DNA of 64,000 bases, taken from an uncultured Lentimicrobiaceae bacterium. Lineage in GTDB: Bacteria; Bacteroidota; Bacteroidia; Bacteroidales; WCHB1-69. Below the pieces are notes generated by a model. The model did not search any database, was not told where the DNA came from, and was given only the letters and a program-made list of their open reading frames with translations. The stretch lies in the NCBI GenBank assembly GCA_964653595.1, contig CAZZHH010000001.1, positions 40,813 to 104,812 of the forward strand, given 5' to 3'. The translations under genes were made by a program, and so were the position numbers. Within the stretch, counting starts at the first letter, position 1, and every line of letters starts with the position of its first letter. Of this stretch, positions 37,876-55,700 are shown piece by piece.

Positions 37876-37965
37876 GGAGAGGTGCCGGAGTGGTCGAACG
37901 GGGCAGTCTCGAAAACTGTTGATCTCGCAAGGGGTCCTAGGGTTCGAATCCCTATCTCTCCGCCA
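37876..37965 (+). tRNA. tRNA-Ser (anticodon CGA), encoded CCA end
   Basis: Folded by hand. Acceptor stem GGAGAGG/TCTCTCC (one G-U pair). Anticodon stem-loop gcagt-CTCGAAA-actgt, giving anticodon CGA. Long variable arm, and T-arm tagggTTCGAATcccta. Confidence 0.9.
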
Positions 37966-38196: not shown

Positions 38197-39417
38197 ATGA
38201 AAAGGACATCATTTAGCGTTATTTATTTTGTAAAACGCACAAGGAGTTTAAGAACTGGCGAATTGCCAATTTACGCACGTATTACAATTAATGGCGAACG
38301 TGCTGAGTTTACGACACAATCATGTGTTAAAGAGGAACAATGGGATAACGTAAGAAACCGAATGAGAGGTACCTCAAAAGAAGCTAAAGACTTGAATTTA
38401 CATCTTGATGGGATTAAATCAAAGCTAATTGAAATTAAGATGGATATGGAGAATCATAAAGAGGATCTAACTGCTTTAGCATTAAGAGACAGATTTATGG
38501 GTATTGAGACTAAAAACAAAACATTACTCACTATATTTCAAGAACACAATGACAAATGCAAAGGTTTGATAAACAAAGATTTTGCACCTGGAACCGTGGA
38601 ACGATATGAAACATGTTATCGATTGCTTGAGTTTTTCATTAAAGATAAGTATAAAAAGAATGATGTTCATTTGCATGAAATCAACCCGATGTTTATCAAT
38701 AATTTCGAGTATTACCTAAAAACCAAAAGGAATTGCTGCAACAATACAACAGTTAAGTACATCAAGAATTTCAGAAAAATTATCCGCATAGCACTAGCTA
38801 ATGGATGGATGAAATCTGACCCATTCTCAAATCTAAAATACCACATTGATGATGTAGATATGGCATATTTAACGGAGAATGAATTAAATATTATGATAAA
38901 TAAGAGATTCACGAATGAACGATTGGCACAAGTAAAAGACATATATCTGTTTTCATGTTTTACAGGACTGGCGTTTATTGACACAAAACAATTGACCTAT
39001 GATGAAATCGAAAATAAAGATGGTAGCCTCTGGATCAAGAAGAAAAGACAAAAAACCAAAAATTGGTGCAATATCCCTTTGTTACAACCTGCAATTGAAA
39101 TCATGAATAAATACAAAAATCATCCAACATGTATAAAAAATGGCGTAGTTTTACCAGTGTTGTCAAATCAGAAGATGAATTCATATTTAAAGGAAATTGC
39201 AGATATGTGCGGGATAGAAAAAAAATTAAGCACTCATACCGCCCGACACACTTTTGCTACTACCGTAACATTAGCTAATAAGGTATCGATGGAGGTGGTT
39301 TCAAAGATGCTAGGTCATTCAAATATGATTATGACAAAAAAATATGCAAGAGTTGTTGATGATCTAATTAATAAAGACATGCAACAAGTGATGACGAAAT
39401 ATCAAACTGCAATCTAA
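38197..39417 (+). CDS. Tyrosine-type site-specific integrase (Bacteroidetes type with N-terminal arm-binding domain)
   Basis: The N-terminus FSVIYFVKRTRSLRTGELPIYARITINGERAEF is typical of the Arm-DNA-binding domain. C-terminal catalytic residues are in HTARHTFATT ... LGHSNMIMTKKYARV. Confidence 0.9.
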   Translation: MKRTSFSVIYFVKRTRSLRTGELPIYARITINGERAEFTTQSCVKEEQWDNVRNRMRGTSKEAKDLNLHLDGIKSKLIEIKMDMENHKEDLTALALRDRFMGIETKNKTLLTIFQEHNDKCKGLINKDFAPGTVERYETCYRLLEFFIKDKYKKNDVHLHEINPMFINNFEYYLKTKRNCCNNTTVKYIKNFRKIIRIALANGWMKSDPFSNLKYHIDDVDMAYLTENELNIMINKRFTNERLAQVKDIYLFSCFTGLAFIDTKQLTYDEIENKDGSLWIKKKRQKTKNWCNIPLLQPAIEIMNKYKNHPTCIKNGVVLPVLSNQKMNSYLKEIADMCGIEKKLSTHTARHTFATTVTLANKVSMEVVSKMLGHSNMIMTKKYARVVDDLINKDMQQVMTKYQTAI

Positions 39418-39491: not shown

Positions 39492-40142
39492 CTATTTGAC
39501 GTGACCTGACAACTCGTTGCCTGGAGCAAATTTAACTACTTTTTTAGGTCTGTTCAAATTGCTGAAATCCGTTGTAACAACATGTAGTGCTGAATCACAA
39601 TCCGCCCAGCTACGAGGTGCTGTGATTTCTGCTACCCCTACTACACGTGCTACAACATCCCTGAAAATCATTGCTTCATTAGTAACGCAATTAATTAAAA
39701 CAAAGGACAAAGTTGATTCAAGCTCTTCTTGAATTTGAGAGTTTGGATCCCAAGTGATTTTCATAAGTTGATCTGGGAGCCCCGTGTTAACTACGTTAAG
39801 AACAGAACTACCTTCAATATCAGCCAATTTTACCAATGTTTGGTCGAGAACTGGAGGTTCACCAACAAAAGCATTTTTGACGATTAGACTTGTTACCTTG
39901 TTGAAAGGTGACATTTTGGTTAAACGACCCGCATAAACCTCATTGATAAGAGGTAATACTTGTCGAACAAATGCAACAGTAGTTGAAAATTTACTACGTT
40001 GTGTTACTTGCCCAATTGTTCTTGGGTTTTTCACTTCAATCGGTTTGGTTCTCATTGTGTTGTTACCAAACTGTTTTGAAAACACGGCTGTACCAAATGC
40101 TTTTTTGGTTCTGCCTGTAATCGGATTCTGTACAATTGCCAT
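39492..40142 (-). CDS. Hypothetical protein (resembles the Bacteroidetes DUF6266-type family from memory)
   Basis: Coherent 216-aa ORF. The N-terminal pattern NPITGRTKKAFGTAVF...MRTKP..VKNPRTIGQVTQRSKF recalls that family. The assignment is unverified. Confidence 0.5.
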   Translation of the reverse strand: MAIVQNPITGRTKKAFGTAVFSKQFGNNTMRTKPIEVKNPRTIGQVTQRSKFSTTVAFVRQVLPLINEVYAGRLTKMSPFNKVTSLIVKNAFVGEPPVLDQTLVKLADIEGSSVLNVVNTGLPDQLMKITWDPNSQIQEELESTLSFVLINCVTNEAMIFRDVVARVVGVAEITAPRSWADCDSALHVVTTDFSNLNRPKKVVKFAPGNELSGHVK

Positions 40143-40334
40143 AATTTAATGATGTTAAATTTATAATTATTCGAACTTGATTAGGACTTGATACGGATTT
40201 TATTCCTTGTCCTGCGTGTCCTCTACAAAGATAAGTAGTAATTTAGATAAAACCATCTTAAAGGCTGATACATAGAATACTATGCACAGAAATGCATCTA
40301 TTTGCCATGAAAAGAACAAATTTCACAAATCTGT

Positions 40335-40760
40335 TTAAGGCTTCGAGAGGTATCGATTGAAAACTGCTCTTTTGGCTTGATCAATTAAGAGGATGTTCTT
40401 TTTGTATGTGGCTTCCAGATTTTCGAGATTGCGAAGTGTGGTGACAGACTTTTGAAAATCATCAGGATTGGAGGCAACAATCGATTTGGCAATGGTTATA
40501 CACGATTTTAAGTCGCTTTTAACGATGAACGGTATGACTGAACCCCGAAGATGCTGATAAAAAGAATTCGACCGCCATAAGCCATATAAAAGCCAATATA
40601 TCTGCTCCCGCTCTTCGGTGGAATCCACGAGGCAGACGAAACAATTTGGACAGGCTTGGTTTAGCGGTTTTCCACTGTTATTTCCTTTGTTAAGGATGAA
40701 AAGGTGTGGCTGAGTGTATTCGGTGCCGACACGGTGTGATTTGATGGTTAACGCTTGCAT
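40335..40760 (-). CDS. Hypothetical protein, 141 aa
   Basis: ORF with normal composition and no motif I can name. The C-terminal third is predicted helical (NLENLEATYKKNILLIDQAKRAVFNRYL). Confidence 0.5.
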   Translation of the reverse strand: MQALTIKSHRVGTEYTQPHLFILNKGNNSGKPLNQACPNCFVCLVDSTEEREQIYWLLYGLWRSNSFYQHLRGSVIPFIVKSDLKSCITIAKSIVASNPDDFQKSVTTLRNLENLEATYKKNILLIDQAKRAVFNRYLSKP

Positions 40761-40881
40761 AACACGGGCTTTAAAAAGATAGCTACGCTTCGCTCCGCAT
40801 TAAAAACTTGACAAAGAAAAATGAAAAAAAACCTAAAAAAAAAGAAAAAGAAAGCCATCTAAAAGGGTGGCGTAAGGGGCT

Positions 40882-40966
40882 GTCAAGGCTTTTGCGATAT
40901 AAATACTATCCGCCAGTGGGCGGACTGGAGATTTATATTGCAAAACCCGAAGGGCTTGGCCTTGAC
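40882..40966. repeat. 85-nt extended hairpin element with a REP-like apex
   Basis: Outer stem gtcaaggc/gccttgac (8 bp). Middle stem ttttgcgatataaat/atttatattgcaaaa (15 bp, 1 mismatch). Apical stem tccgcc-agtg-ggcgga (6 bp). Confidence 0.8.
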
Positions 40967-41068
40967 TGACCACGTGAATGAGCATCAGGACATAAATGGG
41001 GTAAGCCAACCTAACTTTGCTTCCTTTTTGTTTTTTTTATTCCATCAAGGAAATCATGAGGGGTGTAA

Positions 41069-41099
41069 TAAAAAAGACCTGCTCTTGCGAACAGGTCTA
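41069..41099 (-). terminator. Rho-independent terminator (minus strand)
   Basis: The reverse complement reads agacctgttcgcaagagcaggtct followed by tttttt. Confidence 0.6.
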
Positions 41100-41249
41100 C
41101 CCCACCATGAAAAAACTATGTATGTGTACATAGCTTGTCTTAAATATCTTTGAATTGTGAATGAACTAATTGTATGACAAATGTACGATATTAAAATACA
41201 ATGACAAAGAAATTTCGTTGTACTTAATAAAATCAATTACGGAGCGGAT

Positions 41250-41444
41250 TTACTCGTCAACTTTTTTCTTGCCTAAAAGCATATCGGTTTGAGCTTTCAT
41301 TTGTTCGAATGAGTATGGTTGTTTTAACTGTTCTTCGGCCTGCTTTAAGGCTTTTAAGTTTTGTAGTCTGTGGTATTCGTTTAAGATGCCATCTTCTTTT
41401 GAAGTTGACTGTTGTTTTTCTGTAATACTCCTGCTATTCTTCAT
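41250..41444 (-). CDS. Possible small protein, 64 aa (doubtful)
   Basis: ATG-initiated, Lys/Gln/Glu-rich helical-looking sequence. The terminator lies ~150 nt downstream. There is no homology evidence. Confidence 0.25.
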   Translation of the reverse strand: MKNSRSITEKQQSTSKEDGILNEYHRLQNLKALKQAEEQLKQPYSFEQMKAQTDMLLGKKKVDE

Positions 41445-42174
41445 ATATTCTGTATTAAAGGATTTGTATTGTAAAGTTAGGGAAAATAATCATGCAAGTC
41501 ATAATTTTTAAAACGTAATTGAATGTATTAACTAAAACAACTGCGGGTTGTAAAAAGACAAAGCATAGTGAGACAGCCTTGAGCCAGCGTGGGGTGAGGG
41601 TGCAATGAACGTAGTGGTTTGCGACCGAACGAAGGGGCGAGCCACCTGCGAGTGGAGCATAGGGTGCGGAGCAGAGGAAGCACGGAGTGAAGCGTAGCGG
41701 AATGAGTGCGCTGCGACCTATGTAGTCTTCTACACAAGGGGTGGCGGACTTTTTGCTTTTTTATGGGGATTGACCTTGTGAGGGTATTTGCAAAAAGTGT
41801 GACACCACGCAGCCCTTTGCGACCCGCAGGCGAGCACAAAAAATAAACAGCCGTGACCTGAAAGCTGCTGTAGAGAATGTAGGCGGAATGAAATGAAATG
41901 TCTGAGCTTGCGAAGGTTTGAATGTAATGGAGCCGTAATGAACGAAGCTGCTTGCAGGGCAAAAGAGGCTGTGGGTGAGGAAGAAGGAGGAGCTGCAATA
42001 AACATGACAGCCTTGCCGATAGGCAACCGAAGGCGTTGAAGCGCTTGTTTTCTACCTTAGAATAAATAGCACAAAAACAAGGGCTGAAACGGGCTGGCGT
42101 GATTATTTGCCGACGACTGATGACGAACACCGCTTCACCTGCTTTGGCTTTGTGGGTGGATTGCTAAAATTTTA

Positions 42175-42846
42175 CTAATTCATCTTAATTTTATTTTTTT
42201 CTGTCTCAACATCATACCCAATTTGCCAATAATACATGTCAATAATTTTCATTATTGGATAATAATAATTTAAGTTTTTACGGATTAAATCTTGACAAGC
42301 TATGATTTGGTTTAAGTCTAAATTATTGAAAATTGATTCTAAACATTTTTTCCCGAACTTTATATCTTTTAGCTTTAATGTATCTTTAATTCCTGTGATA
42401 AAATATCTGTCAAAAGCTGGAACACACCCCAAAGTGCCAAGCATTATTTTACTAATAAGAGTATCTGTAGGAGTAATATATTTTGGATTTTTTTCTTCCT
42501 TAATGTATGTTATACTATTATAATAATTGGCTAATTCATCTTTTAATTCTAATATCAAATCAATGTCTTTGATAATTATATCGGTTTCCCAATTACACCT
42601 TAGCTTATGGAATTTTTCTTTGAATAGAATATCAACAGCTTTTTGATGAATGAAATGATTTTTTTGTAGCAAACCACATGATCCTCTATACATACCCCAA
42701 CTTGCTAAATAAAATGCTAAATGTAAAGCATGGGATTCGTCAGGAACAGCTGATAAAAATGCTTTATGGCAATTATCCCACGATGAATATCTATGATAGG
42801 GATCTTTTTTTATGTTTAAAATAAATTTTTCAATTGTACTTTTCAT
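42175..42846 (-). CDS. Hypothetical protein, 223 aa, directly downstream of brxL
   Basis: Coherent ORF on the same strand as BREX, 116 nt after the brxL stop. Conserved-looking N-terminal block YHRYSSWDNCHKAF ... LHLAFYLASWGMYRGS. Function unknown. Confidence 0.6.
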   Translation of the reverse strand: MKSTIEKFILNIKKDPYHRYSSWDNCHKAFLSAVPDESHALHLAFYLASWGMYRGSCGLLQKNHFIHQKAVDILFKEKFHKLRCNWETDIIIKDIDLILELKDELANYYNSITYIKEEKNPKYITPTDTLISKIMLGTLGCVPAFDRYFITGIKDTLKLKDIKFGKKCLESIFNNLDLNQIIACQDLIRKNLNYYYPIMKIIDMYYWQIGYDVETEKNKIKMN

Positions 42847-42962
42847 GCAAAATTTTTAGGTTAAATATATGATTATCTTACAATAGAATTAAGAACAGAT
42901 TGACAGCATTTGCTTATATTCAGTACTTTAAATTAGTTATAATTCAATTAAAAATCGTTAGT

Positions 42963-45011
42963 TTAGTCGATTAATACTGATTTTTGAAGTAGTAATATGC
43001 TATTGTTATAAAATGGGACATCGGTTTTCCCTAAAATTGTGGTTGGCAGAGTTGCGATTTCTGAGACATTATCCATTGGGACAAGTATTGTCTTAGCTCC
43101 ATTTTCGGAAAGAAGGGTTACTTTATCTGCAAAGTTTAATGCTCTTTCTATAGCCCCACCTATTGATAAATTACCCAAAACGGCCAGTCCTCCTTTGAGG
43201 TTTTTCTTATATAAAGCGGAAATAATTGCAACATAAACAGCACTTCCAATACCCCCACTTATGGATGCTCCCATAAGATTGCTAACTTGAATGTTTAAAT
43301 CGTAACCAGATAAGGAGTGTTGATCATTTAGAATGCTTTTTTCGTTAGCTCTAAGGTAGTTGTATGTATTTTTAATGTTCTCCTTTACAAGTTGAGAGTT
43401 CGTTCCTGTAATGTTGGTTTTACCACTTCCTTTGAGTGCAACAACTTCGATTTTTACTAATGAGTTGTTTTCGCCATCGCTGGTAGCCGTATAACATACG
43501 CCTGGAGCAAGTGGATTTGATTCAATCAATGATGAACCTCTCTCTTCGGGTAATCCTACAAATATTTCCTCTTGCGTTTCTTTGTCGATATATGAAAAGT
43601 TGGTGTCCCAAAACTCCATACCTCCAATTCTTTTAAGTTGTTCTTTCACTCTACGGCGCATTTCCATTGCTATTACCAGATATTCTTTAATATCCTCTTT
43701 GTTGAATTCGCCATTTGGGTGCATAAGTTTAATTAAACCAGAAACAATTTTACGTACTGATTTGGAATCTCTTTGTTTAATATGCGACCCTAACGTGAAG
43801 TATTGATCAATGGCATCGTAGTATGTTGTTTTTCGTTGTGATTTTAGCACTTCGGAAAAGAAATCGGTACTAAATCCAAAGTGGTTTGTGAAATTTTGAG
43901 GACTAAATTTGGTTATTTCCCAACCCGGAAGGAATAAATTAATACGATCTAAAAAAGCCGTATCATAATTTACTTCATCAGACAACGGACTAAATAGATG
44001 TGATGTTTGCAAAACAGTTTCAACGGGTTGATTTATGTTACCGTTTAAAATTATGGAAGCTGAACCTGTTATTTCACCACCCTTTGCCCTAGAAAACGAA
44101 CCCGATTCCATGTAATCTTTCATTAAGGGTATAGCATCTCTATCTTTAAATAATTTATCGGTACTTTCATCAAAGCAAATGGTGTCCCATAATCCAACGG
44201 CACCAACTCTGCCTGTTGTGTTATTTACAAATAATTGGGCTACAGAGCCTTGACCGCCAGAGATTAATATTGCATAAGGTGTAATTTCTTTGTAGATGTA
44301 TGATTTCCCTGAAGAACGAGGGCCTAATTCTACCATATTGAAATTAGCTTCAACCAATGGAATTAAACGACAGAGTAACAAGTTTAATTTTCGAGCATCA
44401 AAACCTTCACTATTAGGCTCATAACCAGCACTTCGGAGTAATAATGTTTTCCACTCCTCTTTGCTAAACTCGTTTCTTTTATTCGCTATTTTTGAATTAT
44501 CAAAACTAGACAATTGTATTGGTTTTATATCACGAACCACAAATGGATACACAACTGAGCCTACTGTTATCATCGGATCGTATTCCATTTCGATTATAGC
44601 CCAAATTCCACCTAATAACAGCTTTTCGTGCGATGTTACTAGATCATCGTTTATATTCGCTTTTTTGATATTACTATTGCTGATGTTTGCCCAATATCTA
44701 TCGCGCTGAGGGTCTAAATCGACTGATATTTTGTCGATAATTTTAAATCGCCCTTTTTCTCTAAGTTTAGATTGTATCAGCGTGCTTTCTTCTGGATTGA
44801 CATAATGATTGCGCAGAACGGATTTAACATTCTCCATACCTTCTTTCAACTTTTCTTCGTCTTCGGTACTGCACGTATTGGCGAGTAAATATTCCAATAC
44901 AAATGCAGGAACATTTGCACCACCCTTTATAATACCTACTAAGTCTTTTTTTACCACATAGCCTCTAAAATGATCTAAGGCTTTTTTATCTAATTCATCT
45001 AGTATTATCAT
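42963..45011 (-). CDS. brxL: BREX system Lon-like protein BrxL
   Basis: 682 aa. N-terminus LDHFRGYVVKKDLVGIIKGGANVPAFVLEYLLA is typical of BrxL. P-loop GPRSSGKSY, and a Lon-protease-like C-terminal domain. Terminal position in the BREX-1 order. Confidence 0.85.
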   Translation of the reverse strand: MIILDELDKKALDHFRGYVVKKDLVGIIKGGANVPAFVLEYLLANTCSTEDEEKLKEGMENVKSVLRNHYVNPEESTLIQSKLREKGRFKIIDKISVDLDPQRDRYWANISNSNIKKANINDDLVTSHEKLLLGGIWAIIEMEYDPMITVGSVVYPFVVRDIKPIQLSSFDNSKIANKRNEFSKEEWKTLLLRSAGYEPNSEGFDARKLNLLLCRLIPLVEANFNMVELGPRSSGKSYIYKEITPYAILISGGQGSVAQLFVNNTTGRVGAVGLWDTICFDESTDKLFKDRDAIPLMKDYMESGSFSRAKGGEITGSASIILNGNINQPVETVLQTSHLFSPLSDEVNYDTAFLDRINLFLPGWEITKFSPQNFTNHFGFSTDFFSEVLKSQRKTTYYDAIDQYFTLGSHIKQRDSKSVRKIVSGLIKLMHPNGEFNKEDIKEYLVIAMEMRRRVKEQLKRIGGMEFWDTNFSYIDKETQEEIFVGLPEERGSSLIESNPLAPGVCYTATSDGENNSLVKIEVVALKGSGKTNITGTNSQLVKENIKNTYNYLRANEKSILNDQHSLSGYDLNIQVSNLMGASISGGIGSAVYVAIISALYKKNLKGGLAVLGNLSIGGAIERALNFADKVTLLSENGAKTILVPMDNVSEIATLPTTILGKTDVPFYNNSILLLQKSVLID

Positions 45012-45022
45012 AATTTATACGT

Positions 45023-47260
45023 TTATAAAAGGCCACCTAAATCTCTGGCAACATTTTGTTTTACAACACCTTTATCTAATTGTTCTTTGGTTAATGCATC
45101 GAGCACTTTAATTTCAATTTCTGAATATGAATCAAATCTGAACTCTTTTTTTATCTCGCTACCTTTAGCAATGGTAATTATATCACTTTCGTTTATTTTT
45201 TGATTGTTGGCAAAAAAGAGAATGATTATTTTACGTTCTGTGGTAAAAAGATCCGATGCATTTGAAGTTGCTTTTATTTTTATCGAGAACAAATCTCCAG
45301 TTATATCTTTCAATTCTTCTTTGTTGGCTATTTCAATTTGTAGTTGATTTTGAGTATTGGTTTTATTTGACCATTTCAAACATGGAATAATTGTTTCTTG
45401 TGGCGATAACCCCCCATGACTGTAGCCATAAACTCCTGTAGATTTGAAAGGGCCTAGTCTTTTTGCAAAATAACAGTAATTGAAATCGCCATACTTTAGC
45501 TCCTGTTCAATCAATAAATCGGAATCTATTTTTTGACTGATTTCGGTTCTGATGTATCGTTCGCTTTTGTTTGTTTTACCATTAAAATCAACCTCTATCT
45601 TATCCGAATCAACAAGAATTCCGGTTAATACAAAGCCATGGTCGGTAAGTAAAAATACATTTTCGTAGCCGTTTTTAAGCAGTTGTTCAATTTTGGAGGC
45701 ATACGTTTCGGACACTTTTTCAAAATGTTTAAGTGCCTTTTGCTGATAGGTCTCTCCCAATTTATCAGGGTCTTTATAACTACAAATTAGATAGTTATAC
45801 TTATCCGTCAACTCGTTTACACTTTCCAAATCAATGAATCCAATTTCTTTGTCTGGATTTTGTTTCAAAATAAAATTTTCTCGGTCTTGCTTTTTTGCCA
45901 TCACTTCACCCGTTTCAACATACAACTGACTCATATTATGTTCGGTTTCGGAGGGGAGGTCTGCAAACAAATATTGATTGTCTTTATCTAAAGGGTACTC
46001 TCTGGAAACTTTTGCAATGATATCTTGAGCAAACTCAAAAGAGACCCCATCACCGACAATAATAGCCGTTTTGGTGATGTTATTATTTAAAATTTCTTGG
46101 ATCTTGCCTGTTTGATTTGATTTGTAGGTATCGATATAACGGAACCATTTTTCGAAGAAAATAATGACGATGTTTTTGTAATAATCCTGTAATGGTTCAA
46201 TTAAGTATTGTTTTTCTAAAAACTCGGTGTAAAGTCCTCTGATAGCCCTATCTAGTTTATAAAAGTGGTTTACATAAAACGAAGCACATTCAGATAACGA
46301 GGCTAACTGATTAATATTTTTGACATCAAATTCTAAAAGTGTTTTTACATGCGACCAAAAAGCAATGTTTAAGTGCTTTATGACCCTGTTGCTAATGCGT
46401 TGGTTTATTTTAGGAATAAAATTGCTAATATATCCTTTATTGGACATGTTTTTACCAAGTTCTTCTAACCATTGTTCATCGATACTTCGGAATGGATGTG
46501 AAGGATGAATGGCGAAAATATCCGACTTTGGTGATAATTTGTATTTCTTGAGATAGGAATCTAAAGAGTTGATATATGTTTTACTGTCTAACCAATTGTT
46601 ATAGACTTCTAACAACACTTTGTTTGGGTTGTTGTTTGCTAACCCATCAAACAGGTAGTTTACCACTTCTGTTGCCAGAGTTGTGGCAGGTTTTGCCACA
46701 TAAGTTTGCCCTATTAATTCATTTATTTTTTTAAAAAAGAGCACTTGTACCATTGCATCGTAGTTTTGGAGATACGATTGGGGACTATCTAAAAATGGCA
46801 ACAACTCTTTTTCAAGGTTAAATATTTCAGACGAACCAGTGATACCCAAATTCATCCAATATGTTTTATCCTTACCAATACTTACTTTTGCAGCTGAAAT
46901 CAATTCGTCTTTCTCTAAATGCAGATTGATGTTGCAATTGCTTAGTGCTTTATCTTTTATGTAATTCTGTAAATACTTGATTTCGAGGCATCCATTAGTT
47001 TCGCAATACTCACGAATAAATTTCAACTGTACTTTTGGGTTGGTGGTGTATATTACCACTTTAGCCCCTATGTTGTAGATTTTTTCAACTTCAAATTTTA
47101 CTCGCAATTCTTCGATTTCGGTAGAAGCAGTATATAACTGGTAATCATCTTTGATTAAATCCAAAAGAAATGCAGCCTCTTTGGATTCATCGATGAATAC
47201 CGCAATTTGCTTTGTTTTTAATATTGCTTCTATGTCTTTTTTAAACCAAGTATCTATCAT
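45023..47260 (-). CDS. pglZ: BREX system alkaline-phosphatase-superfamily protein PglZ
   Basis: 745 aa. PglZ-domain core (IVGDGVSFEF ... VFLLTDHGFVLTG) and a position between pglX and brxL. Confidence 0.85.
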   Translation of the reverse strand: MIDTWFKKDIEAILKTKQIAVFIDESKEAAFLLDLIKDDYQLYTASTEIEELRVKFEVEKIYNIGAKVVIYTTNPKVQLKFIREYCETNGCLEIKYLQNYIKDKALSNCNINLHLEKDELISAAKVSIGKDKTYWMNLGITGSSEIFNLEKELLPFLDSPQSYLQNYDAMVQVLFFKKINELIGQTYVAKPATTLATEVVNYLFDGLANNNPNKVLLEVYNNWLDSKTYINSLDSYLKKYKLSPKSDIFAIHPSHPFRSIDEQWLEELGKNMSNKGYISNFIPKINQRISNRVIKHLNIAFWSHVKTLLEFDVKNINQLASLSECASFYVNHFYKLDRAIRGLYTEFLEKQYLIEPLQDYYKNIVIIFFEKWFRYIDTYKSNQTGKIQEILNNNITKTAIIVGDGVSFEFAQDIIAKVSREYPLDKDNQYLFADLPSETEHNMSQLYVETGEVMAKKQDRENFILKQNPDKEIGFIDLESVNELTDKYNYLICSYKDPDKLGETYQQKALKHFEKVSETYASKIEQLLKNGYENVFLLTDHGFVLTGILVDSDKIEVDFNGKTNKSERYIRTEISQKIDSDLLIEQELKYGDFNYCYFAKRLGPFKSTGVYGYSHGGLSPQETIIPCLKWSNKTNTQNQLQIEIANKEELKDITGDLFSIKIKATSNASDLFTTERKIIILFFANNQKINESDIITIAKGSEIKKEFRFDSYSEIEIKVLDALTKEQLDKGVVKQNVARDLGGLL

Positions 47261-47262
47261 AA

Positions 47263-48303
47263 TTATGGGTGATTAATTGTTGGTAATGGAAATTGCGTTT
47301 CAAATGTCCACTTGAGATCGTTGATGGTATTTTTGAATTCAGTCAGTGTGTCAATAATTTCGTCAAAGGAGGGTGAATCGCCATATATCATTTGTTGTTG
47401 CATTATTTTGTAATCAGCTCTCCATGCTTCTATAAAATCAGCATTAGGAATGGGATTAATTGATTGTGGTTGATGCAAATTGTAATCAACACCACCTACT
47501 TTAGTAAAATGATATCGGTGATTTACTATGGTTTCGTATAGTACTTTATCATTAATGGCATCTAAAGCAAATTGGTTTTTCGACAATTGATAGACGTCGT
47601 ATAAATGTCGGCTTAACCTATTCACTCTTGCTTTTTCAGCAGGTCGGTGAAACTCCTCGTGCAATAGGAATATTTTCTCTAAAAATGTCCTTTCTGGATT
47701 TACCACGGGTATATTTATTGATGCTTGTGCAAAAGCCGCTTGAGGATAATTTTCATCTACCAAAGATAACACGTTTTTGTTTGTAAACGGCTCTCTTAAA
47801 GAACGACAACCAATTTCTACCTGAACCTTTGGCTGGATATACCCTGGTGTTGGAATTACATTTGGATAGTATATTTCAATTACGCTTGGATCTTGATCGC
47901 TGTCGGGTGTTTCTATTAATTTTAAGATTACATCGGAGAATCCTTTTTCGGAAAATTTATGTTGAAGGTCTATTATGAAAATAGTTGAAATATAGGTATA
48001 TGCTGACTTCCGTAATGCTGTGCGTTTGCTTTTTGATAGATTGCCTTCAACCCCAAGGAACTTTCTATCTAGTGCCAAGTCTATGTCTTCCGAAAAACGG
48101 TCGATTAATCCCCACGCTTTGCTTAGCGAAGTGCCACCTTTAAATACTAAGTGGTTTCCAATTTCCATTTCGAAAATCAGCGCCAAGGTTTGCACTACCC
48201 ACCAGTCTTTTTCAACGGCGTAAGCTGCCATACCAGTATCTTCGGCAATTTGAGTATATGCTCTGATTTTGGTTTCTGCGGGCGTGTTATACCATCTATT
48301 CAT
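47263..48303 (-). CDS. abiEii: AbiEii/AbiGii-family nucleotidyltransferase toxin (DUF1814)
   Basis: FKGGTSLSKAWGLIDRFSEDIDL nucleotidyltransferase motif. 346 aa. The start overlaps the upstream antitoxin gene by 8 nt. Confidence 0.8.
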   Translation of the reverse strand: MNRWYNTPAETKIRAYTQIAEDTGMAAYAVEKDWWVVQTLALIFEMEIGNHLVFKGGTSLSKAWGLIDRFSEDIDLALDRKFLGVEGNLSKSKRTALRKSAYTYISTIFIIDLQHKFSEKGFSDVILKLIETPDSDQDPSVIEIYYPNVIPTPGYIQPKVQVEIGCRSLREPFTNKNVLSLVDENYPQAAFAQASINIPVVNPERTFLEKIFLLHEEFHRPAEKARVNRLSRHLYDVYQLSKNQFALDAINDKVLYETIVNHRYHFTKVGGVDYNLHQPQSINPIPNADFIEAWRADYKIMQQQMIYGDSPSFDEIIDTLTEFKNTINDLKWTFETQFPLPTINHP

Positions 48304-48907
48304 GGATGTTGTTTTTAAGTGCTTTGCGCATAATTACTCTAATCCATTCGGGGGCCAGACGAATGTCGTGTTCTAATCTCGATTGTTCTTCTTTTTGAAG
48401 TTGTTTTAGAATTATATTAATTTCTTGTTCAGTTACATTCTCTTTGCCAATTACTTTGAGGGCTTGTATCACCAAACTACTTATTTTGCCTATGGATGAT
48501 AAATTTTTAGGGGCAGATTTTTTGAAAAGAATTTTGCGTTTACCTAAATCTATTTTTCGTGCAGCACCATCGGTAAGATAAACGGCATTCATAGGTACTT
48601 GGGTTGATAAACCAAGTGCATTAAGTGCCATAACTCCTGTGGGAACTATCCGCGCTTTGTCTCTTTTGCCAATGGCTTCGGCAATGGCTTCGGTGCTAGG
48701 TTTTATTAAACCCAAAACAGGGTCGTTTTCTAAACGTGCATAAATACCACGAGCCACCCGAAAAACCTCTCCTTTTTCCACCATTCTCTCTAATGCTTTT
48801 GCTATGGCTTTAGCTGAGCCAAAAGAGAGAAAATCTTCCACAAAAAAGAGCGAACCCCTCTTGGCTTTTTTAATTTTAATAATTACTTTATCATCAATAC
48901 TTTGCAT
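48296..48907 (-). CDS. abiEi: AbiEi-type antitoxin / transcriptional autoregulator (DUF6088-like)
   Basis: 203 aa. N-terminal winged-helix-like segment (SAKAIAKALERMVEKGEVFRVARGIYA). Coupled to the AbiEii gene, with two inverted-repeat operators upstream. Confidence 0.7.
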   Translation of the reverse strand: MQSIDDKVIIKIKKAKRGSLFFVEDFLSFGSAKAIAKALERMVEKGEVFRVARGIYARLENDPVLGLIKPSTEAIAEAIGKRDKARIVPTGVMALNALGLSTQVPMNAVYLTDGAARKIDLGKRKILFKKSAPKNLSSIGKISSLVIQALKVIGKENVTEQEINIILKQLQKEEQSRLEHDIRLAPEWIRVIMRKALKNNIHE

Positions 48908-49010: not shown

Positions 49011-52000
49011 TTACCAATCGGCATTCAAATATTTCTTCAACTGTCCGGCATTTAATACTTCGTAAGCCAACATGCCTTTGTTTTGCAATGGGGCTATGTT
49101 TTTGCCTACGCCATCGTCGAGTATGGGGTTGTAGCCTTCGGTTAACAGCTCATCTATTTTTGCTTTGAAACGTTCTATCTCTTTGAGTTGCTTGTAGATT
49201 ATGTCTTTTTCGTTTTGTGCTTTGGCAGAAGTGTCGTTGGCTAAATCGGATTGACGATTAACCAATGCCCGTTCGCGCTGTTCGATGTGAACGGAGCGTA
49301 GGCTGAGCAGTTTATCGCGATTCCATTTGTAGATAATGATGTAACAATCGAACCCATGCTCCGCACCACTGGTTAAATGCCATATAAACGGCGTTTTGGG
49401 TAAATACATAAACAAGTTGAGATGATCGGAAAGTGCCTTGAAAAAGTCGTGGTTGATGTATTCGTTAAGTTCTTTGCCCAATAGACTATCAAACGAAGAG
49501 TATTGCGCCATGCTAAACCCTTTTTGGATAAACTTTTCTTCTATTCGTTCTAACAATATTTTTTCGCCAGCATTGGGCACTAATGGAATGATGCCATCTT
49601 CGTCTTCCATTAATATTTCGCGAATCATATCGGCTAAAAACTCCATGGCCAAATCGTTCATGCGTTGTTTTGGTATGATGTTGCTCTCTTTAAACCAATA
49701 CCAAACATTGATCGGATTTACTTTGTGGCGAATGCAAAACTCTTCCAAATCGTTGTTGCTTTGGTATAGCGCAGGAAACTCTTGCACAATGGTTTCGCGC
49801 TCTTGTGCTGTAAATTGGTGTTCGGGTAAGTTTTGGATGTAATCTTTGATATTATCTAACGGAAACTCTGCCACTTCGTTTTGCAAATAGGCTTCTTTTG
49901 CCTCTTTTGCAACGGGCAACCCACCTATGCTTTCGCCTTCTTTGGCTAATACCATGGCTTTGTCGGCAGCAGTTAACTCATATACTTCAAATATTTTTTC
50001 GTTTATGATGGCTTCGTTTAGGAGGACTTGGGTTATTAGATGATTTTCATAGTTAAAATAAAAAATCAGATTACTTTTCCAATCCAAAACAGCTTGATTG
50101 TCAAACATAGTTGAAGTAAAATCTCTCTCATAAATATGATAACTATTAATTTGTTTAGTTATAGCAACATTTCTCGAGGATAAAAGAGTAATGCATTTTT
50201 CTAATTTTTCTTTTGGAATAACAAATGGAACTCTTTGCATATCCCCAACTTGTGCATTTACTGTAGGATTGAGACAATCGATAATATACTGTGTAAACGG
50301 GGAATTGAAAAATGCTAAATTATAAAAATTGTTTTTGAATTTTTTTATTGAAAAAATAGAACTACCGCCAACATCAAAAATACAATCACTTGGTAGAAAT
50401 CTATATGAAGGACCTTTAGAACCTGAGGCAGAATAAGTCACACCCTCTTTAAAATACACATCTTCATTTTGAGGTCTTGATCTCTGCTTTCCATTTTCAT
50501 CATTAAAATTTCTGATTAAATCACCATTATTTTTCCAATTTACTTTTAACCATAAATTACCTTCCCACTTTTTATATGGGCCGCCCTTAGCATATGTTAC
50601 CCATTCATTTTTGGCAATATTCTCATCCTTTGGTTTTAATTCCCACCAAAATCGAAGAAATCTATTATTATCCGCTGTGGCAAGTCCTTGACAATTTCTT
50701 AAAATATCTTTGACCGAATCTCCTTCAAACTTTTCCCTAAACTCATCGCTTATCCAATAAATAAATGGGTATGATTTTATGATTTTAAGTTTGGATTGCG
50801 GTAAAGAATAGTTATTAGAATGATTTACTCCCGTAATTAATTTATCATACGCTTCTACAAAGGCATCATATCTTTTACCTTCGTAAATATGATTGAGTTT
50901 AATGAAAGGGGTTTCCTTTTCTTTTTGAGTTTCCTTTTCTAACACATACATAGCTGCATCAACCCTTGCAGATGGATGGAACATGCCTAAATATCCCCAC
51001 TCTACAAATAAATCAATGTGCGTTTTTTCCAAAATAAATTTTCTAACATCTTCAAATGTTTTGATGTACATAAAAGTTGGTGGATGAACCATTGCCACTT
51101 TACCTTTTTCATTAGTTAGCTCAAAGCATCGTTTTATAAATGTAGCGTATAGGTTGGTGTTAAACTTATATGGTTTTGCATAATTGGTATCGATATATTT
51201 TTTAAGTTCGGCACCAAAATCGGCGCTATCGGTATAAGGCGGGTTGGCACAGGCTATATCGTATTTTTGGGTAATTAGTTTTAAAAAAGTAATGGCATCT
51301 TTGGTTTTGTCGGTTAAAAAAGAGACGCCTTGTTTTTGTGCATATTGGGCTACCGCTGTTTCGAGGTTTATGAAGAAATCCTTTTCAAACTCTTCGTATT
51401 GGGCTATTTCTGCACTCAAAAACAGATCTAGCTCGCCACGTTTTTGCTTGGTATAAAGCTCTTCTACTTGGTGTTTGATTTTTTCTTCAATTTTCACCAA
51501 AGAGCCAAATTTGTGGGCTTGTTGCAGGTCAGTCCAAATTTCCGCTACAATTTTTCGTTGGTTATCGTCAGTTATTCCGGTTTCAAAAATTGGCAACACC
51601 TCCTGATAATCGGGCAAATAGAAATCGGAAGAGACCACATTAAAATGCAAAGCGGTTGTGTTTCTGTTTTTTTGTTTTGCTTTAATCCACAATCCCAACT
51701 GTGCCAATTGAGCGGCACGGTCGTCTAAATCAATACCATGGAGGTTGTTTTCGATAATCAGTTTCGGAATATCATCAATTTCGTAATCGGCATCGTAGTT
51801 TTCTATTTGATCGAGGTAAAGGGCATAAAAGAATGCAAAAGCGTAAAGGAGGAAATTACCCGAACCCGAAGCCGGGTCGATTAGTTTAAGCAAGTGCAAG
51901 GGCTTTGGTTCTCTTACTTTTGTTTTTGGTGCATTCCCTTCGACTGCGCTCAGGGCGGGTGCTATTTTATACAAGCTTTTTATTTCGCTATCGGGGTACA

Positions 52001-52730
52001 TTTCCAAATAGAGTTTTCCCAATGAGTTATGCACCAGAAACTCAACCACCCAACGTGGAGTATATACTTGCGATTGAAGGCTTACTTTGTTGTATTCTGT
52101 TTTGTCGCCACTATCTTTGTGTGCCTGTTTTTTTACATTGTTGTAGCTTTCGTATAGCCAACCCAAAATATCATCGCTCTGCCATATTTTAGACTCAATT
52201 TGGTCGTCTTGTTCTATTTTGTTAAAGGCATCAATAATTTCGTTAAACTCGATAACATAGGGGATGAAGGCATAGGGGTAATTTTTATGAAACAACGGAA
52301 TATCGTCGCCTAACCTATTAAACTCATGCTTAAAATATTCTCTTATCCCTTCCATTTCTTCGTTGCGCATGGCTGGGTTTTGCTCCAACCAAACTTTATG
52401 ACCAAACGATCGTCCACCATGTTCGGCTTGTTTGGTAATAATGGGCGGAAACAGTTGCAGGGCTTCCATTACTTTAATGGCTGCCAAGCGGTTGAAAAGG
52501 GTGAACGTTAATTCATCCAATGCTTTTTCGCGGGCATCGGTATAATTTCCTGTTTCTCCTTCGTGGTTTTTAATCAGTAACGCAATTTTGTTCCGTTTGG
52601 CGTGAAGTTCTATGGGAATTTTATCTGCTTCAGCCATTTTGGTAGCTCCAAAGCCCAATCGAGCAAACTGATTGTTGAAAGCCTTGTATATTAAGATTCG
52701 AATATTATCTACATGTTCGGGTAATTTCAT
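49011..52730 (-). CDS. pglX: BREX-1 N6-adenine DNA methyltransferase PglX
   Basis: 1239 aa. SAM motif I LIDPASGSGNFLLYAF, catalytic motif IV DIACANPPYTDS, and a position after brxC. Confidence 0.9.
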   Translation of the reverse strand: MKLPEHVDNIRILIYKAFNNQFARLGFGATKMAEADKIPIELHAKRNKIALLIKNHEGETGNYTDAREKALDELTFTLFNRLAAIKVMEALQLFPPIITKQAEHGGRSFGHKVWLEQNPAMRNEEMEGIREYFKHEFNRLGDDIPLFHKNYPYAFIPYVIEFNEIIDAFNKIEQDDQIESKIWQSDDILGWLYESYNNVKKQAHKDSGDKTEYNKVSLQSQVYTPRWVVEFLVHNSLGKLYLEMYPDSEIKSLYKIAPALSAVEGNAPKTKVREPKPLHLLKLIDPASGSGNFLLYAFAFFYALYLDQIENYDADYEIDDIPKLIIENNLHGIDLDDRAAQLAQLGLWIKAKQKNRNTTALHFNVVSSDFYLPDYQEVLPIFETGITDDNQRKIVAEIWTDLQQAHKFGSLVKIEEKIKHQVEELYTKQKRGELDLFLSAEIAQYEEFEKDFFINLETAVAQYAQKQGVSFLTDKTKDAITFLKLITQKYDIACANPPYTDSADFGAELKKYIDTNYAKPYKFNTNLYATFIKRCFELTNEKGKVAMVHPPTFMYIKTFEDVRKFILEKTHIDLFVEWGYLGMFHPSARVDAAMYVLEKETQKEKETPFIKLNHIYEGKRYDAFVEAYDKLITGVNHSNNYSLPQSKLKIIKSYPFIYWISDEFREKFEGDSVKDILRNCQGLATADNNRFLRFWWELKPKDENIAKNEWVTYAKGGPYKKWEGNLWLKVNWKNNGDLIRNFNDENGKQRSRPQNEDVYFKEGVTYSASGSKGPSYRFLPSDCIFDVGGSSIFSIKKFKNNFYNLAFFNSPFTQYIIDCLNPTVNAQVGDMQRVPFVIPKEKLEKCITLLSSRNVAITKQINSYHIYERDFTSTMFDNQAVLDWKSNLIFYFNYENHLITQVLLNEAIINEKIFEVYELTAADKAMVLAKEGESIGGLPVAKEAKEAYLQNEVAEFPLDNIKDYIQNLPEHQFTAQERETIVQEFPALYQSNNDLEEFCIRHKVNPINVWYWFKESNIIPKQRMNDLAMEFLADMIREILMEDEDGIIPLVPNAGEKILLERIEEKFIQKGFSMAQYSSFDSLLGKELNEYINHDFFKALSDHLNLFMYLPKTPFIWHLTSGAEHGFDCYIIIYKWNRDKLLSLRSVHIEQRERALVNRQSDLANDTSAKAQNEKDIIYKQLKEIERFKAKIDELLTEGYNPILDDGVGKNIAPLQNKGMLAYEVLNAGQLKKYLNADW

Positions 52731-52741
52731 CTGCTTATTTA

Positions 52742-55700
52742 TTAATTGTTGATAGTCAATTCAATTTCGTCGTCGTTGCTCATTCCAGCAATTCCCTGAA
52801 TTTGAGCAGCTAATAACGCTCTATATTCGGAGGCTTTCATCACTTTTTTAGCAACTGTAAATTGAATTTTCTTAGCCTGTTTAGGTTCTCCTGGAGTTGC
52901 AAGTTTTGGCACCTCTTTAATGAAGTTGCTTTTCAGTATTTGCAATTCCGCATCTTTGTTAGGAGCTAAATCAATATAATTCAAAATATCGGTTAACGAG
53001 TAGTTGCAATCCTGACACGAAACCTGATACTCTAAACGCACATCGTTTATGATTCTTCCAGTACAAATCTCCATTAACGATTTAAGACTTGATGTGTTTT
53101 GGGTATTGAGTTCGGCAGGATAATTTTCAGCCAAATCGGCTTGAGCTGCAACAATATTTGTTTTAATTGTGGTGTAAAGATCAGCCATTTTTTTAGCATT
53201 GGCCTTCATTAAAAGATAATATTCATCTTTTATGGCTTGAGCTGCTTTCTGTATATCGGTATAGTTGTCAATTACATCTTTTGCCATTGCTTTATCGAAG
53301 TTTTCGGCATTAGAAGCAACTATGGCATTGGTGATATTTGCTTTACTTAATTCGCTTTTAACGGCTGTAACAAAGCGATTATAGCCTTTAATTTTATCGA
53401 GGTTCTTTTTGATAAATGCTTCCGCTTTTACAATGGATCTTATAGCCTCTGAATATTCATCTTTACCGGATAAGAAATCTTCGGCTTTTTCGATGTAATT
53501 GGCTTCGGTAGTCTTAGAAATGTATTTTTGCAATATCTCTTTCTGCATCAACACTTTGTTGAATTGTTTATCGAAATCGGGTACCGTATTTTTTAATGCA
53601 ATAACGGTAGTAATAAAGTTGTCGGCAAAATAGGTAATGGCATCGGCTAGTTCGAAATCGGTACTTTCGTATTTGATTTTTAGCTTGGTGTATTTTTCAA
53701 TTTCCAAATCTAAAAGTGTTTTTACAATTTCGCTTTTTTGCGATGCACTCAAGGTTTTTGTTATGGATTTGAAACGGGCAGTTTTATATTTAGCCCCCGA
53801 ATTAAATACTTCTTGCACTGCTTTGTCGCTATACGAGAAGTATTCGGTATCGTTGAATTTAACCACCAATCGGCCAGCACGTAACAAAACGGCTAAAGAT
53901 GTAGATAACGTGCCATAGGAATAGCCCCAAGGCGCCATCGACAATTCATCTTCGAGGCTCTTGCCATCAATATATCGATTGTTTATTTTAGCCGTAATTT
54001 CTTCAATTACCTTTAAACTATCGCCCACAAAATTACCATTGGCATCAAAAAACTTAAACTCATCTCCCGAAAAGTACTTATTGAGTTTATCGGCACTAGT
54101 TTCTTTTAACACTTTATCGCCTATAGACTCTGGCAACTGACTGGTAAGCCGTTTGGTGTAAATATTCTTTATCAGTTTTTTTTGCGTTTCATTGATTGTT
54201 GTTTTGAAATTATCTTTATTTAAAAGATTTTCATCGAACAAATAGATGAGCGAACCATTCTCGTAAGCGGTTTCAATTAGATTGACCAGATCTTTTTCTT
54301 TCTCGTTTTTAATGATCGAAAACTCTCTGATAATTGGCTTCACTTTTTCGTCGTCGGTACTGCTATACTTATCTTCCATATAGCCATAACGTTTCACCTC
54401 TTCGATAAGCTTGTCAATTTCTGCAAATCGTTTGTTATCCGGCACTAATGTTATTTTATCTTTTGCGTATTGCGTGTCTAATTTCAAACTTTCCACAAAG
54501 TCTTGTCTGTCATCGTTCAAGTTAAAAAGACTGTAAACGGTAAGCTTCAGATTTTTGTTATTTGAACTAATAATCTCGTCATCAAGGTCGGTTAACACAT
54601 TGAAATTGTATGAAGCAGTGTTCTCATTGATAACTGAAACCAACCGGAATAAACTGATTTTTTTGAAATAGTTGACCAACTCTCTTTTCTTAACGAACAG
54701 TTCCACCTCAAAATCTTTCATCTCCTCCAATAATTTACCTTCGAGGTTGGATGTTATTTTGTAGTTGTTATTCGAAAACAAAAGGATCTTAGATTCCACC
54801 AATAGCGTTAATGCTTTTTCCACCAATGGTTTGGCATCATAGTAGGTAGCAATATCCGCAATATATGTTTTGGTAATGTTTTCAACCGTTGGCGATGCGA
54901 TTAATTCGGCTTCGTTAATGAAATGTATGGTTTTTAAAAGCATTTCGCCATCCAATGATATATTGTTGTTGGTTAATATACTCTTAGCCGTACTGTATTT
55001 ATTTGCCAAATCGGCTGGTGGCGAAGATTGGGCTTGTGTGCATAAATCGTGGGCGGTAGCAAATTTATGTAATTCATTTTCGATCAATGATTTTTTCAAC
55101 ACATCAAATGTTGTAATTATCATCCCACGAGCTGCAATTTGAGTTGACACTAAAGCATTGGAACTAAACAAAAACTTTTGAAGCAGATCGAATTGGTATT
55201 TGTGAAACGGATAATAGGTTGCAAATTGTTCTGCGGATACTGTTTTGGTGGGAAAGCTAGATTTTAAATTAGTGGCATCGCTTATCAACCCTTCATTTGC
55301 TTTGTAATAGGTGAGTAATTCATTTTGTGCATCTTCGGTTTTCAGCAACAGTCTGTTTTTAATAATCACATCAACCTCTGTAGATTCGATGTGCATTTTT
55401 GTTTTAAAACGGTCGGTTACTTTATTGAGTTGGCTCTTATTAATGTTTGCATTAATGATTACATCGTCTAATTTTTGTTGAGCGATGGCAATGGTCCATA
55501 CTTTTTTGCTAATACTCGAAAGGCTTTCGCTAATAGCCTGCAAATCTGTAAGTTTAAACTTGCCTTGACTTATTGCCTCACTGGCTTCGTCGAAAATAAA
55601 AACTAAGGTTTCATCGGTGTTTTTTGCTAAATATTTTTCAAGTTCATCTTTAAATTTGTTAGCATCGAAGTTTTTAATTGCAAACTCATAAACCTTTTCC

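Follow-up and report, generated by a model that had tools for sequence, protein, structure and literature searches.

The 64-kb window examined here (a whole stretch of 64,000 nucleotides (nt) from contig CAZZHH010000001.1 of an uncultured Lentimicrobiaceae bacterium) carries a set of BREX defence genes on its minus strand and, close to them, a GC-rich block that is the subject of this work. Along the minus strand the order is BREX, an open reading frame (ORF) of 223 amino acids, the block, an ORF of 64 amino acids, a hairpin, a conserved non-coding stretch and the genes for a DUF6943 and a DUF6266 protein (Table 1). The block is a conserved element whose secondary structure covaries among relatives, and its sequence points to a plus-strand RNA belonging to the mobile island in which it lies. 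The first-pass annotation had set it apart at 41528–42170 as GC-rich, purine-skewed and non-coding, and the GC and purine profile of the window bore this out. GC and purine fractions were 0.502 and 0.602 in the block, against a GC fraction of 0.350 for the full window; means over 600-nt windows were 0.351 (sd 0.035) for GC and 0.498 (sd 0.046) for purine, and the five 600-nt windows highest in GC all overlapped the block. Its existence stood but its limits moved slightly outwards, to 41533–42191, where a profile of 18 sequences found its sole copy within the window. This interval of approximately 0.66 kb is the GC maximum of the 64 kb at the 600-nt scale (0.51 against 0.35) and is purine-skewed on its plus strand; family members range from 0.6 to 0.95 kb.

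The block is non-coding. Its only long ORFs are, as first described, two overlapping minus-strand frames of 200 and 98 amino acids, neither with a Pfam or PADLOC match. A search of the longer, spurious frame against 5.8 billion proteins returned four matches, all near-identical ORFs, and it was through the contigs of these four that DNA homologues of the block were reached. The 200-amino-acid frame is not kept in relatives, which have versions of 158 and 124 amino acids, and indels among homologues measured 1, 8, 13 and 44–55 nt, sizes that do not follow the codon. The repeated words tttgcgacc (41618, 41816) and gacagcctt (41572, 42006) are where they were said to be, as is a minus-strand terminator-like hairpin at 41069–41099; the complementary words cacaagg/ccttgtg (41733/41774) and ctgcgggt/acccgcag (41541/41822) are also present, but their pairing is not kept in homologues. 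Tandem Repeats Finder reported for the block only A-rich low-complexity arrays lying outside it. The 15-mer GGAGYGAAGCGTAGC does occur as an inverted pair, at 40782–40796 (minus strand) and 41684–41698 (plus strand), with a chance expectation of 0.04 matches and two or more matches in 0 of 100 shuffles.

To follow the block beyond the window, we fetched 80 genomic loci encoding DUF6943, all from Bacteroidota genomes or metagenome-assembled genomes except for one binned Turneriella and one Limnohabitans. Twenty of them, in Cytophagia- and Flavobacteriia-type genomes, contain a GC-rich, purine-rich non-coding block of 0.94 kb (GC approximately 0.5 against 0.25–0.4 in the flanks) that has exact cores in common with the window: GCGACCCGCAGGCGAGC, TGACGAACACCGCTT.ACCTGC and GCGAGCC.CCTGCGAG.GGAGCA. 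A profile of these 0.94-kb blocks found relatives in most of the other DUF6943 loci, and a third subfamily, of approximately 0.8 kb, lies directly upstream of DUF6943. Wherever DUF6943 was detected, in 80/80 genome loci and 8/8 metagenome loci, the matches to the family lay upstream of it on the other strand. Paludibacter and Bacteroidales loci (L074, L037, L018, L040, L041, L036 and L035) have two to four copies of a 3' sub-module; in L074 (4205–5800) there are three tandem non-coding units of approximately 520–530 nt each, with no ORFs between them. Cultured carriers include Cyclobacterium lianum CGMCC 1.6102 (L070), Algoriphagus formosus XAY3209 (L084), Marivirga atlantica SM1354 (L081), Algoriphagus sp. 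CAU 1675, Fontibacter flavus CCM 7650 and Gynurincola endophyticus HBUM179779, and expression, structure and genetics are therefore directly testable.

The structure was assessed in an alignment (A8) of the window with 17 homologues, 15 of them from metagenomes and 50–59% identical to the window. The consensus comprised 118 pairs in 18 helices, and 61 of these pairs had a change in each partner. Column shuffles gave 36.8±3.0 such pairs, and none of 500 reached 61; when partners were slid by one to three columns only 23–31 doubly changed pairs were counted. Standard pairs occupied 88% of paired cells, against 32–45% in the slid controls. The 0.94-kb subfamily gave an independent result in the same direction, with 34 of 251 pairs doubly changed against 17.5±2.6 in shuffles and 7–12 in slid controls. 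That a conserved structure exists is near certain, and of the three options first put forward for the block it is the large structured non-coding RNA that is favoured by strong covariation in 11 helices, a conserved closing helix and the absence of a coding signal.

The most telling feature is the recurrence of the closing helix in three subfamilies, with different sequences in each. In the window its arms (H1, Table 1) are 563 nt apart; the variant AACGCAGGTAAA/TTTACCTGCGTT has 12 exact base pairs with arms 717–774 nt apart, and GGTTTAAACCGAAT/ATTCGGTTTAAACC has 14 exact base pairs with arms 813–867 nt apart. Metagenome members add further variants (ACACAGG/CCTGTGT and GGTTATA/TATAACC). Within the domain, the arms of H6 (5' GGTGGCGGACTTT..., 3' AAAGTGTGACACC) display compensatory changes even among close relatives, and the hairpin 41740–41756/41790–41806 is kept in homologues with compensatory changes, as are the pairs of the H7/H8 sub-domain (ACAGCC/GGCTGT, GGCAGCC/GGCTGCC and GGTAGT/ACTACC). 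In the 0.94-kb subfamily, the 3' repeat module contains a GC-GNA-GC mini-hairpin with covariation from CG to UA. H3 is less secure: half of its pairs are invariant, the rest have one-sided variation or unpaired cells, and its pairing is unproven because no compensatory change was seen. The 5' arm of H3 sits inside the conserved motif GCGAGCCACCTGCGAGTGGAGCA, where an alternative local hairpin (CCAC/GTGG) can be drawn that passes from CCGC/GCGG through CCGC/GTGG to CCAC/GTGG across the subfamilies. The 17-mer GCGACCCGCAGGCGAGC is exact in all window-type and A3-type loci, and the third subfamily retains only CCGCAGGCGAGCA of the core. We note that a G-tract-rich 3' tail is found in all subfamilies (GGGTG.GGGTGGGG in relatives, GGCTTTGTGGGTGG at 42146–42165 in the window); divergence from relatives starts immediately past this tail, which could be a G-quadruplex or a processing signal.

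Table 1. Coordinates of the element, its predicted helices and motifs, and neighbouring features in the 64-kb window
Feature	Position	Strand	Remarks
Whole structured non-coding element	41533–42191	+	Match to 18-sequence profile (A8), E 5.9e-125; composition outlier
H1, closing helix	41559–41571 / 42135–42146	+	6/12 pairs covary
H1 5' arm, CAAAGCA-ta-GTGAG	41559–41571	+	A8 covariation
H1 3' arm, CTTCAC-c-TGCTTTG	42135–42146	+	A8 covariation
H2	41574–41578 / 41587–41591	+	2/5 pairs covary
H3, predicted	41641–41658 / 41819–41835	+	0 double changes; half of pairs invariant
H4	41680–41683 / 41706–41709	+	3/4 pairs covary
Mini-hairpin GC-GTA-GC	41692–41698	+	Seen by eye; inside H4 and the 15-mer 41684–41698
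H5	41721–41725 / 41730–41734	+	1/5 pairs covary
H6	41738–41750 / 41796–41808	+	11/12 pairs covary
Core GCGACCCGCAGGCGAGCA	41819–41836	+	18-mer used for metagenome retrieval
H7	41845–41851 / 41967–41973	+	5/7 pairs covary; closes sub-domain 41845–41973
H8	41862–41869 / 41946–41953	+	5/7 pairs covary; within H7 sub-domain
H9	41995–42012 / 42092–42110	+	8/15 pairs covary; 3' sub-domain 41995–42110
H10, triloop hairpin CC-GAA-GG	42026–42028 / 42031–42033	+	1/3 pairs covary
H11	42034–42052 / 42073–42091	+	14/18 pairs covary
Conserved motif TGACGAACACCGCTTCACCTGC	42121–42142	+	Near-identical in three subfamilies; leads into H1 3' arm
nc2, structured element of ~100 nt	40876–40972	+	Profile match; between DUF6943 and the -7 box
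Bacteroidetes sigma-A -7 box TAACTTTG	41012–41019	+	Points towards block
Second -7 box-like motif TATCTTTG	41145–41152	+	Downstream of hairpin 41069–41099
tRNA-Ser(CGA)	37876–37965	+	Own terminator; immediately upstream of integrase
Tyrosine integrase	38197–39417	+	Next after DUF6266
DUF6266 gene	39492–40142	-	Pfam PF19781
DUF6943 gene	40335–40760	-	Pfam PF22105, E 1.7e-46; divergent from block
64-amino-acid ORF	41250–41444	-	No family match; conserved in L004
223-amino-acid orphan ORF	42175–42846	-	Directly downstream of brxL; no Pfam or PADLOC match
BrxL	42963–45011	-	BREX gene
PglZ	45023–47260	-	BREX gene
Large ORF in PglX position (1239 amino acids)	49011–52730	-	Assigned by position
Large ORF in BrxC position	52742–56350	-	Assigned by position
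Primase/helicase-like protein (756 amino acids)	57778–60048	-	BT4734-like N-terminal, PriCT_1 and DUF3987 domains; beyond BREX

Several lines of evidence bear on the strand that folds. In the covariation-supported helices of the 0.94-kb set, G·U pairs outnumbered A·C mismatches, each of which would read as G·U on the complementary strand, by 135 to 12 on the purine-rich strand, which corresponds to the plus strand of the window, and in the window-type set the counts on the plus strand were 57 and 38. Minimum free energies were -216.8 kcal/mol (z -2.9) on the plus strand and -163.9 kcal/mol (z -1.3) on the minus, and alignment-fold energies also favoured the plus strand. The promoter-like sequence is oriented accordingly: at the position of the window's -7 box, TAnnTTTG was found in 64 of 67 distinct loci, always directed away from DUF6943 and towards the block, and in L045, L074 and L086 no other such box lies between DUF6943 and the element. 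No reverse-oriented TAnnTTTG was found within 290 nt upstream of DUF6943 in any locus, so that DUF6943 has no canonical box there. The -7 box spans -12 to -5 relative to the start (PMC9723704), which would place the transcription start at approximately 41024. Together, the G·U and A·C counts, the fold energies and the orientation of the promoter box favour a plus-strand RNA. The 64-amino-acid ORF has a near-consensus -7 box of its own, TAACTTTA, on the minus strand at approximately 41471–41478, and would be antisense to any plus-strand transcript entering the block.

A smaller structured element, nc2, accompanies the block. Nearly all of the 80 DUF6943 loci share it at 70–79% identity. Nine of its 28 predicted pairs covary in a trimmed alignment; its G·U pairs point to folding on the strand that does not encode DUF6943, and it has no match in Rfam. 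Its motifs resemble those of the block (GGCTGTCAAGG...CCTTGAC, stems of U-runs and A-runs, and CCC-GNA-GGG). The minus-strand copy of the 15-mer (40782–40796) sits in the DUF6943 leader, where a related motif is kept in 29/80 loci. A protein-binding motif shared by leader and block was considered and set aside as weak, AAGCG.AGC being present in 29/80 leaders and rare in blocks.

The first-pass annotation had suggested that the block could be transcribed with BREX. The BREX genes, which include brxA and brxB, also on the minus strand, run opposite to both the folded strand and the conserved promoter box. Inserted in the BREX operon, between the 49011–52730 ORF and PglZ further downstream, is an AbiEi/AbiEii toxin–antitoxin pair (47263–48907, minus strand). 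In L004 the block, the 64-amino-acid ORF, DUF6943 and DUF6266 are colinear with the window at 87% identity overall, and 42170–40761 (the block, the non-coding stretch and the 64-amino-acid ORF) is approximately 95% identical. Homology to L004, L005 and L006 breaks sharply at approximately 42170–42185, the cargo-side edge of the block, and what follows differs in each contig. In L004 a DUF4145 gene comes next, and L005 and L006 continue with unrelated sequence. The block has metal-resistance genes on both sides in Marivirga and adjoins a STAND NTPase gene in the Bacteroidales bin L074. Cargo seen beside the element includes BREX/AbiE, DUF4145, ArsR/MerT/cation-efflux, STAND NTPase, FRG and HATPase_c_4 proteins. 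The 223-amino-acid ORF is absent from relatives that share the block and therefore belongs to the cargo side. Because homology ends at the BREX-side cargo and the cargo of relatives differs, the block is not part of BREX; the strand favoured for folding is also the opposite one, and co-transcription with BREX is not supported. BREX is probably interchangeable cargo that abuts the block by chance. For the annotation of the window this removes one supposed BREX accessory and one spurious ORF of 200 amino acids.

The integrase, the tRNA-Ser gene and the primase-like gene around BREX and the block indicate that the whole region is an integrated mobile island, and we note that the DUF3987/PriCT_1 protein marks it as an integrative element of a replicative or mobilisable kind. 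The tRNA-Ser 3' end has no direct repeat elsewhere in the window, and the far end of the island is therefore out of view. A metagenome scan by the 18-mer core, not selected for DUF6943, returned at least 120 stretches. Approximately 68 of the 120 listed were true family members, in contigs of GC 0.33–0.53; the remaining listed stretches were chance matches, nearly all in contigs with GC above 0.6. Among the matches listed, to which the following neighbour counts refer, DUF6266 was the commonest protein neighbour (14 of 68 members, in each case 5' of the element and on the other strand), a tyrosine integrase was present in 12 loci, mostly approximately 0.7 kb past the 3' end, a putative zinc-finger primase, read from its sequence motif, was a recurrent large neighbour in seven, and DUF6943 was found beside 5–8 of the 68. 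Other recurrent neighbours, putative from sequence, were XRE/ImmA-like regulators, UmuDC-like proteins and heavy-metal ATPases. The recurrence of integrase and DUF6266 neighbours with varied cargo indicates that the element is a backbone part of mosaic integrative islands, and the family is abundant in environmental Bacteroidota. The element is often at the junction of backbone and cargo, with sharp borders. In 15 A3-type loci (L076:7440–7460 and 14 others) the DUF6943–DUF6266 module ends exactly at TTGTATCGGGAAGTAA, past which every one of the 15 differs, resembling a site-specific junction or the end of an element.

Searches of existing catalogues did not retrieve the family. At gathering thresholds, Rfam 15 matched only the tRNA in the window; for 40300–42900 at E values up to 10 it gave chance-level matches only, outside or below threshold, and for the relatives it gave nothing in eight loci at gathering thresholds and nothing in three loci at E ≤1. 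This covariance-model scan, which the first-pass annotation had proposed, included GOLLD, ROOL, HEARO and OLE as well as group I and II introns, RNase P and tmRNA, and none matched the block. PLSDB plasmids had no blastn match to either the window block or the 0.94-kb form, and six IMG/VR stretches containing the 17-mer core were dismissed as chance matches, none being recognised by the family profile. We found no literature on DUF6943 or DUF6266, and no description of the block family in the literature on large RNAs in Bacteroidetes. The blocks are best described as a previously uncatalogued family of large structured non-coding elements in the backbone of Bacteroidota integrative islands.

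We propose that the element, which would share the island backbone with DUF6943, DUF6266, nc2 and the tyrosine integrase, probably specifies an RNA of the mobile island. This RNA would be made from the purine-rich plus strand, divergently from DUF6943 and antisense to the direction of BREX, with transcription from the conserved -7 box and perhaps from the second box-like motif too. It would fold as a domain closed by the long-range helix H1, with ten or more other helices inside and several purine-rich stretches that stay unpaired and are nearly invariant. Such an RNA may act in trans in the life cycle of the element itself, possibly, as large RNAs of other mobile elements suggest by analogy, as a scaffold or decoy whose repeated C-GNA-G mini-hairpins and GA-rich loops bind proteins encoded by the element; any specific function, whether as scaffold or decoy or in excision, replication or cargo exchange, is speculative. 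A bolder version of the proposal, which we offer only tentatively, is that the family represents a new large 'ornate' RNA class specific to Bacteroidota integrative islands, a closed multi-helix domain of 0.6–0.95 kb in which sub-modules are sometimes repeated in tandem, with nc2 as its companion, made from a conserved promoter divergent from DUF6943/DUF6266 and acting with both proteins to control excision, replication or cargo exchange. The structural models of the proteins do not fix a function for either. DUF6943 (141 amino acids; predicted local distance difference test score 92) has a fold weakly resembling the target-recognition domain and helix of type I restriction–modification specificity (HsdS) subunits (best Foldseek E 3.7e-3), hinting at a role in DNA recognition, and the DUF6266 model has an FN3-like sandwich at its C-terminus.

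A number of observations weigh against the RNA proposal. That the folded molecule is RNA is something we infer from the sequence, and the window-type alignment gives a weak strand asymmetry (57 against 38). The window and several other loci have cargo genes or a hairpin separating the conserved box from the block, and the 3' end of the element showed no conserved intrinsic terminator. The conserved box cannot make nc2, because nc2 lies upstream of it and folds on the same strand. Several hairpin caps seen by eye are C-GNA-G triloops, and no GNRA or UNCG tetraloop turned up in this inspection, which was not a systematic loop census. DUF6943 was found in only 8 of the 68 listed metagenome members, and in 3 of the 21 with at least 4 kb on that side, and its rarity there means that the protein partnership is loose.

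Some of these points feed the main rival explanation, which we think unlikely: that the element folds as single-stranded DNA during excision, replication or transfer, as a site like the single-strand origins (sso) and single-strand initiation sites (ssi) or as a structure read by a primase or recombinase. Folding is strand-specific on a mobile element (G·U against A·C 135:12 and 57:38), nc2 folds on the same strand although it lies upstream of the promoter box, and each strand carries one copy of the 15-mer hairpin motif, the two being inverted. C-GNA-G triloop mini-hairpins are especially stable in DNA, and they recur here (CCC-GTA-GGG, GC-GTA-GC and CC-GAA-GG). The islands also encode primase-like proteins, at 57778–60048 in the window and, as a putative zinc-finger primase, in seven metagenome loci among the matches listed. 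However, a domain of 0.6–0.95 kb with a closing helix spanning 560–870 nt and at least 11 helices far exceeds sso and ssi sites in size and intricacy, a conserved double-strand promoter box points into the element, and no relaxase or oriT was identified nearby. Another explanation, to which we give a lower probability still, is that the block is a recombination or cargo-junction site, resembling attC/attI or anchoring a hotspot, and is conserved for recognition by a recombinase or for homologous recombination. The sharp break of homology at the 3' edge in four window-type loci with different cargo would fit this, as would the discrete, sharp-bordered module of the 0.94-kb subfamily, the end of the DUF6943–DUF6266 module at TTGTATCGGGAAGTAA in 15 loci, the integrase approximately 0.7 kb past the 3' end in 12 metagenome loci among the matches listed, and the tandem sub-module copies. 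It would leave some 120 covarying pairs, a long closing helix and invariant interior 18–22-mers with no need in recombination; the tandem units of L074 contain no ORFs, and the borders showed no flanking repeats, direct or inverted. A junction site is compatible with an RNA, and both could hold.

The remaining explanations have far less to recommend them. The functional strand might be the minus strand, serving as a C-rich, G-poor Rho-utilisation (rut) site or insulator, or as the 3' untranslated region of a cargo operon, that stops read-through from BREX into the backbone genes. The minus strand is indeed rich in C, poor in G and weakly structured, and along it the block comes immediately after the BREX-side genes and before the terminator at 41069–41099. 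Covariation and the G·U and A·C counts favour folding of the opposite strand, however, and the block occurs with upstream cargo in either orientation and also where such cargo is absent. A rut site needs neither conserved helices nor invariant cores, and we consider this explanation very improbable. Scarcely credible are the other two options first put forward for the block, a protein-coding gene in decay and an accumulation of dispersed GC-rich repeats. A stop-free minus-strand frame of 200 amino acids and the internal word repeats might suggest as much. Against a decayed foreign gene are the lack of a Pfam or PADLOC match to the ORFs, the restriction of ORF relatives to near-identical DNA copies, the shortening of the frame to 158 and 124 amino acids in relatives and the non-codon indels (1, 8, 13 and 44–55 nt); a pile-up of repetitive extragenic palindromic (REP)-type elements is contradicted by the single copy within the window and the single orientation relative to DUF6943 in relatives. 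The block is also more conserved than the flanking genes (in L004, approximately 95% for the block with the adjacent non-coding stretch and 64-amino-acid ORF, against 87% over the whole colinear stretch with DUF6943 and DUF6266), and we regard both options as refuted.

If the bolder version of the proposal holds, mobile-element biology would gain an RNA (or RNA/single-stranded DNA) component for which no counterpart has been described. Bacterial non-coding RNAs longer than 500 nt form few known classes, and each has been informative on RNA architecture. The family also offers a first functional handle on the Pfam domains DUF6943 and DUF6266. As it marks the junction of backbone and cargo, the element is a possible sequence tag for the islands and what they carry, and the islands so tagged carry defence systems (BREX, AbiE and STAND NTPases) and metal resistance.

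Among the closest known systems, the sso and ssi sites of rolling-circle plasmids and of integrative and conjugative elements are, like the element, non-coding, orientation-specific and hairpin-rich, and are carried by elements with a single-stranded stage. In contrast to them, the element is three to five times larger (660–950 nt against roughly 100–300 nt), has a closing helix whose arms are hundreds of nucleotides apart and follows a conserved double-strand promoter box. HEARO/omega RNAs and bridge/seek RNAs are likewise structured and encoded beside recombinase or nuclease genes of mobile elements; unlike these, the element has no HEARO match in Rfam and no adjacent IscB, TnpB or IS110-type gene, and the tyrosine integrase that neighbours it is not known to be RNA-guided. 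With the attC/attI sites of integrons it has in common a sharp boundary between backbone and cargo, strand-specific folding and a nearby tyrosine recombinase. However, attC sites are imperfect palindromes of 60–140 nt, one per cassette, whereas the element is a single multi-helix domain of 0.6–0.95 kb whose tandem units in L074 come without genes. Prophages and other mobile DNA carry GOLLD and ROOL, for neither of which a function is established. A recent cryo-electron microscopy study reports RNA-only multimers for these classes (PMC12286853). The element differs from GOLLD, ROOL and OLE in lacking an Rfam 15 match, in its Bacteroidota hosts and integrative islands, in the partial tandem duplication of its sub-module, and in its recurrent GNA triloops and 100-nt companion. 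It is like all three in its size of approximately 0.6–0.9 kb, its many covarying helices, its near-invariant unpaired stretches and its appearance as a GC-rich intergenic block in AT-rich genomes.

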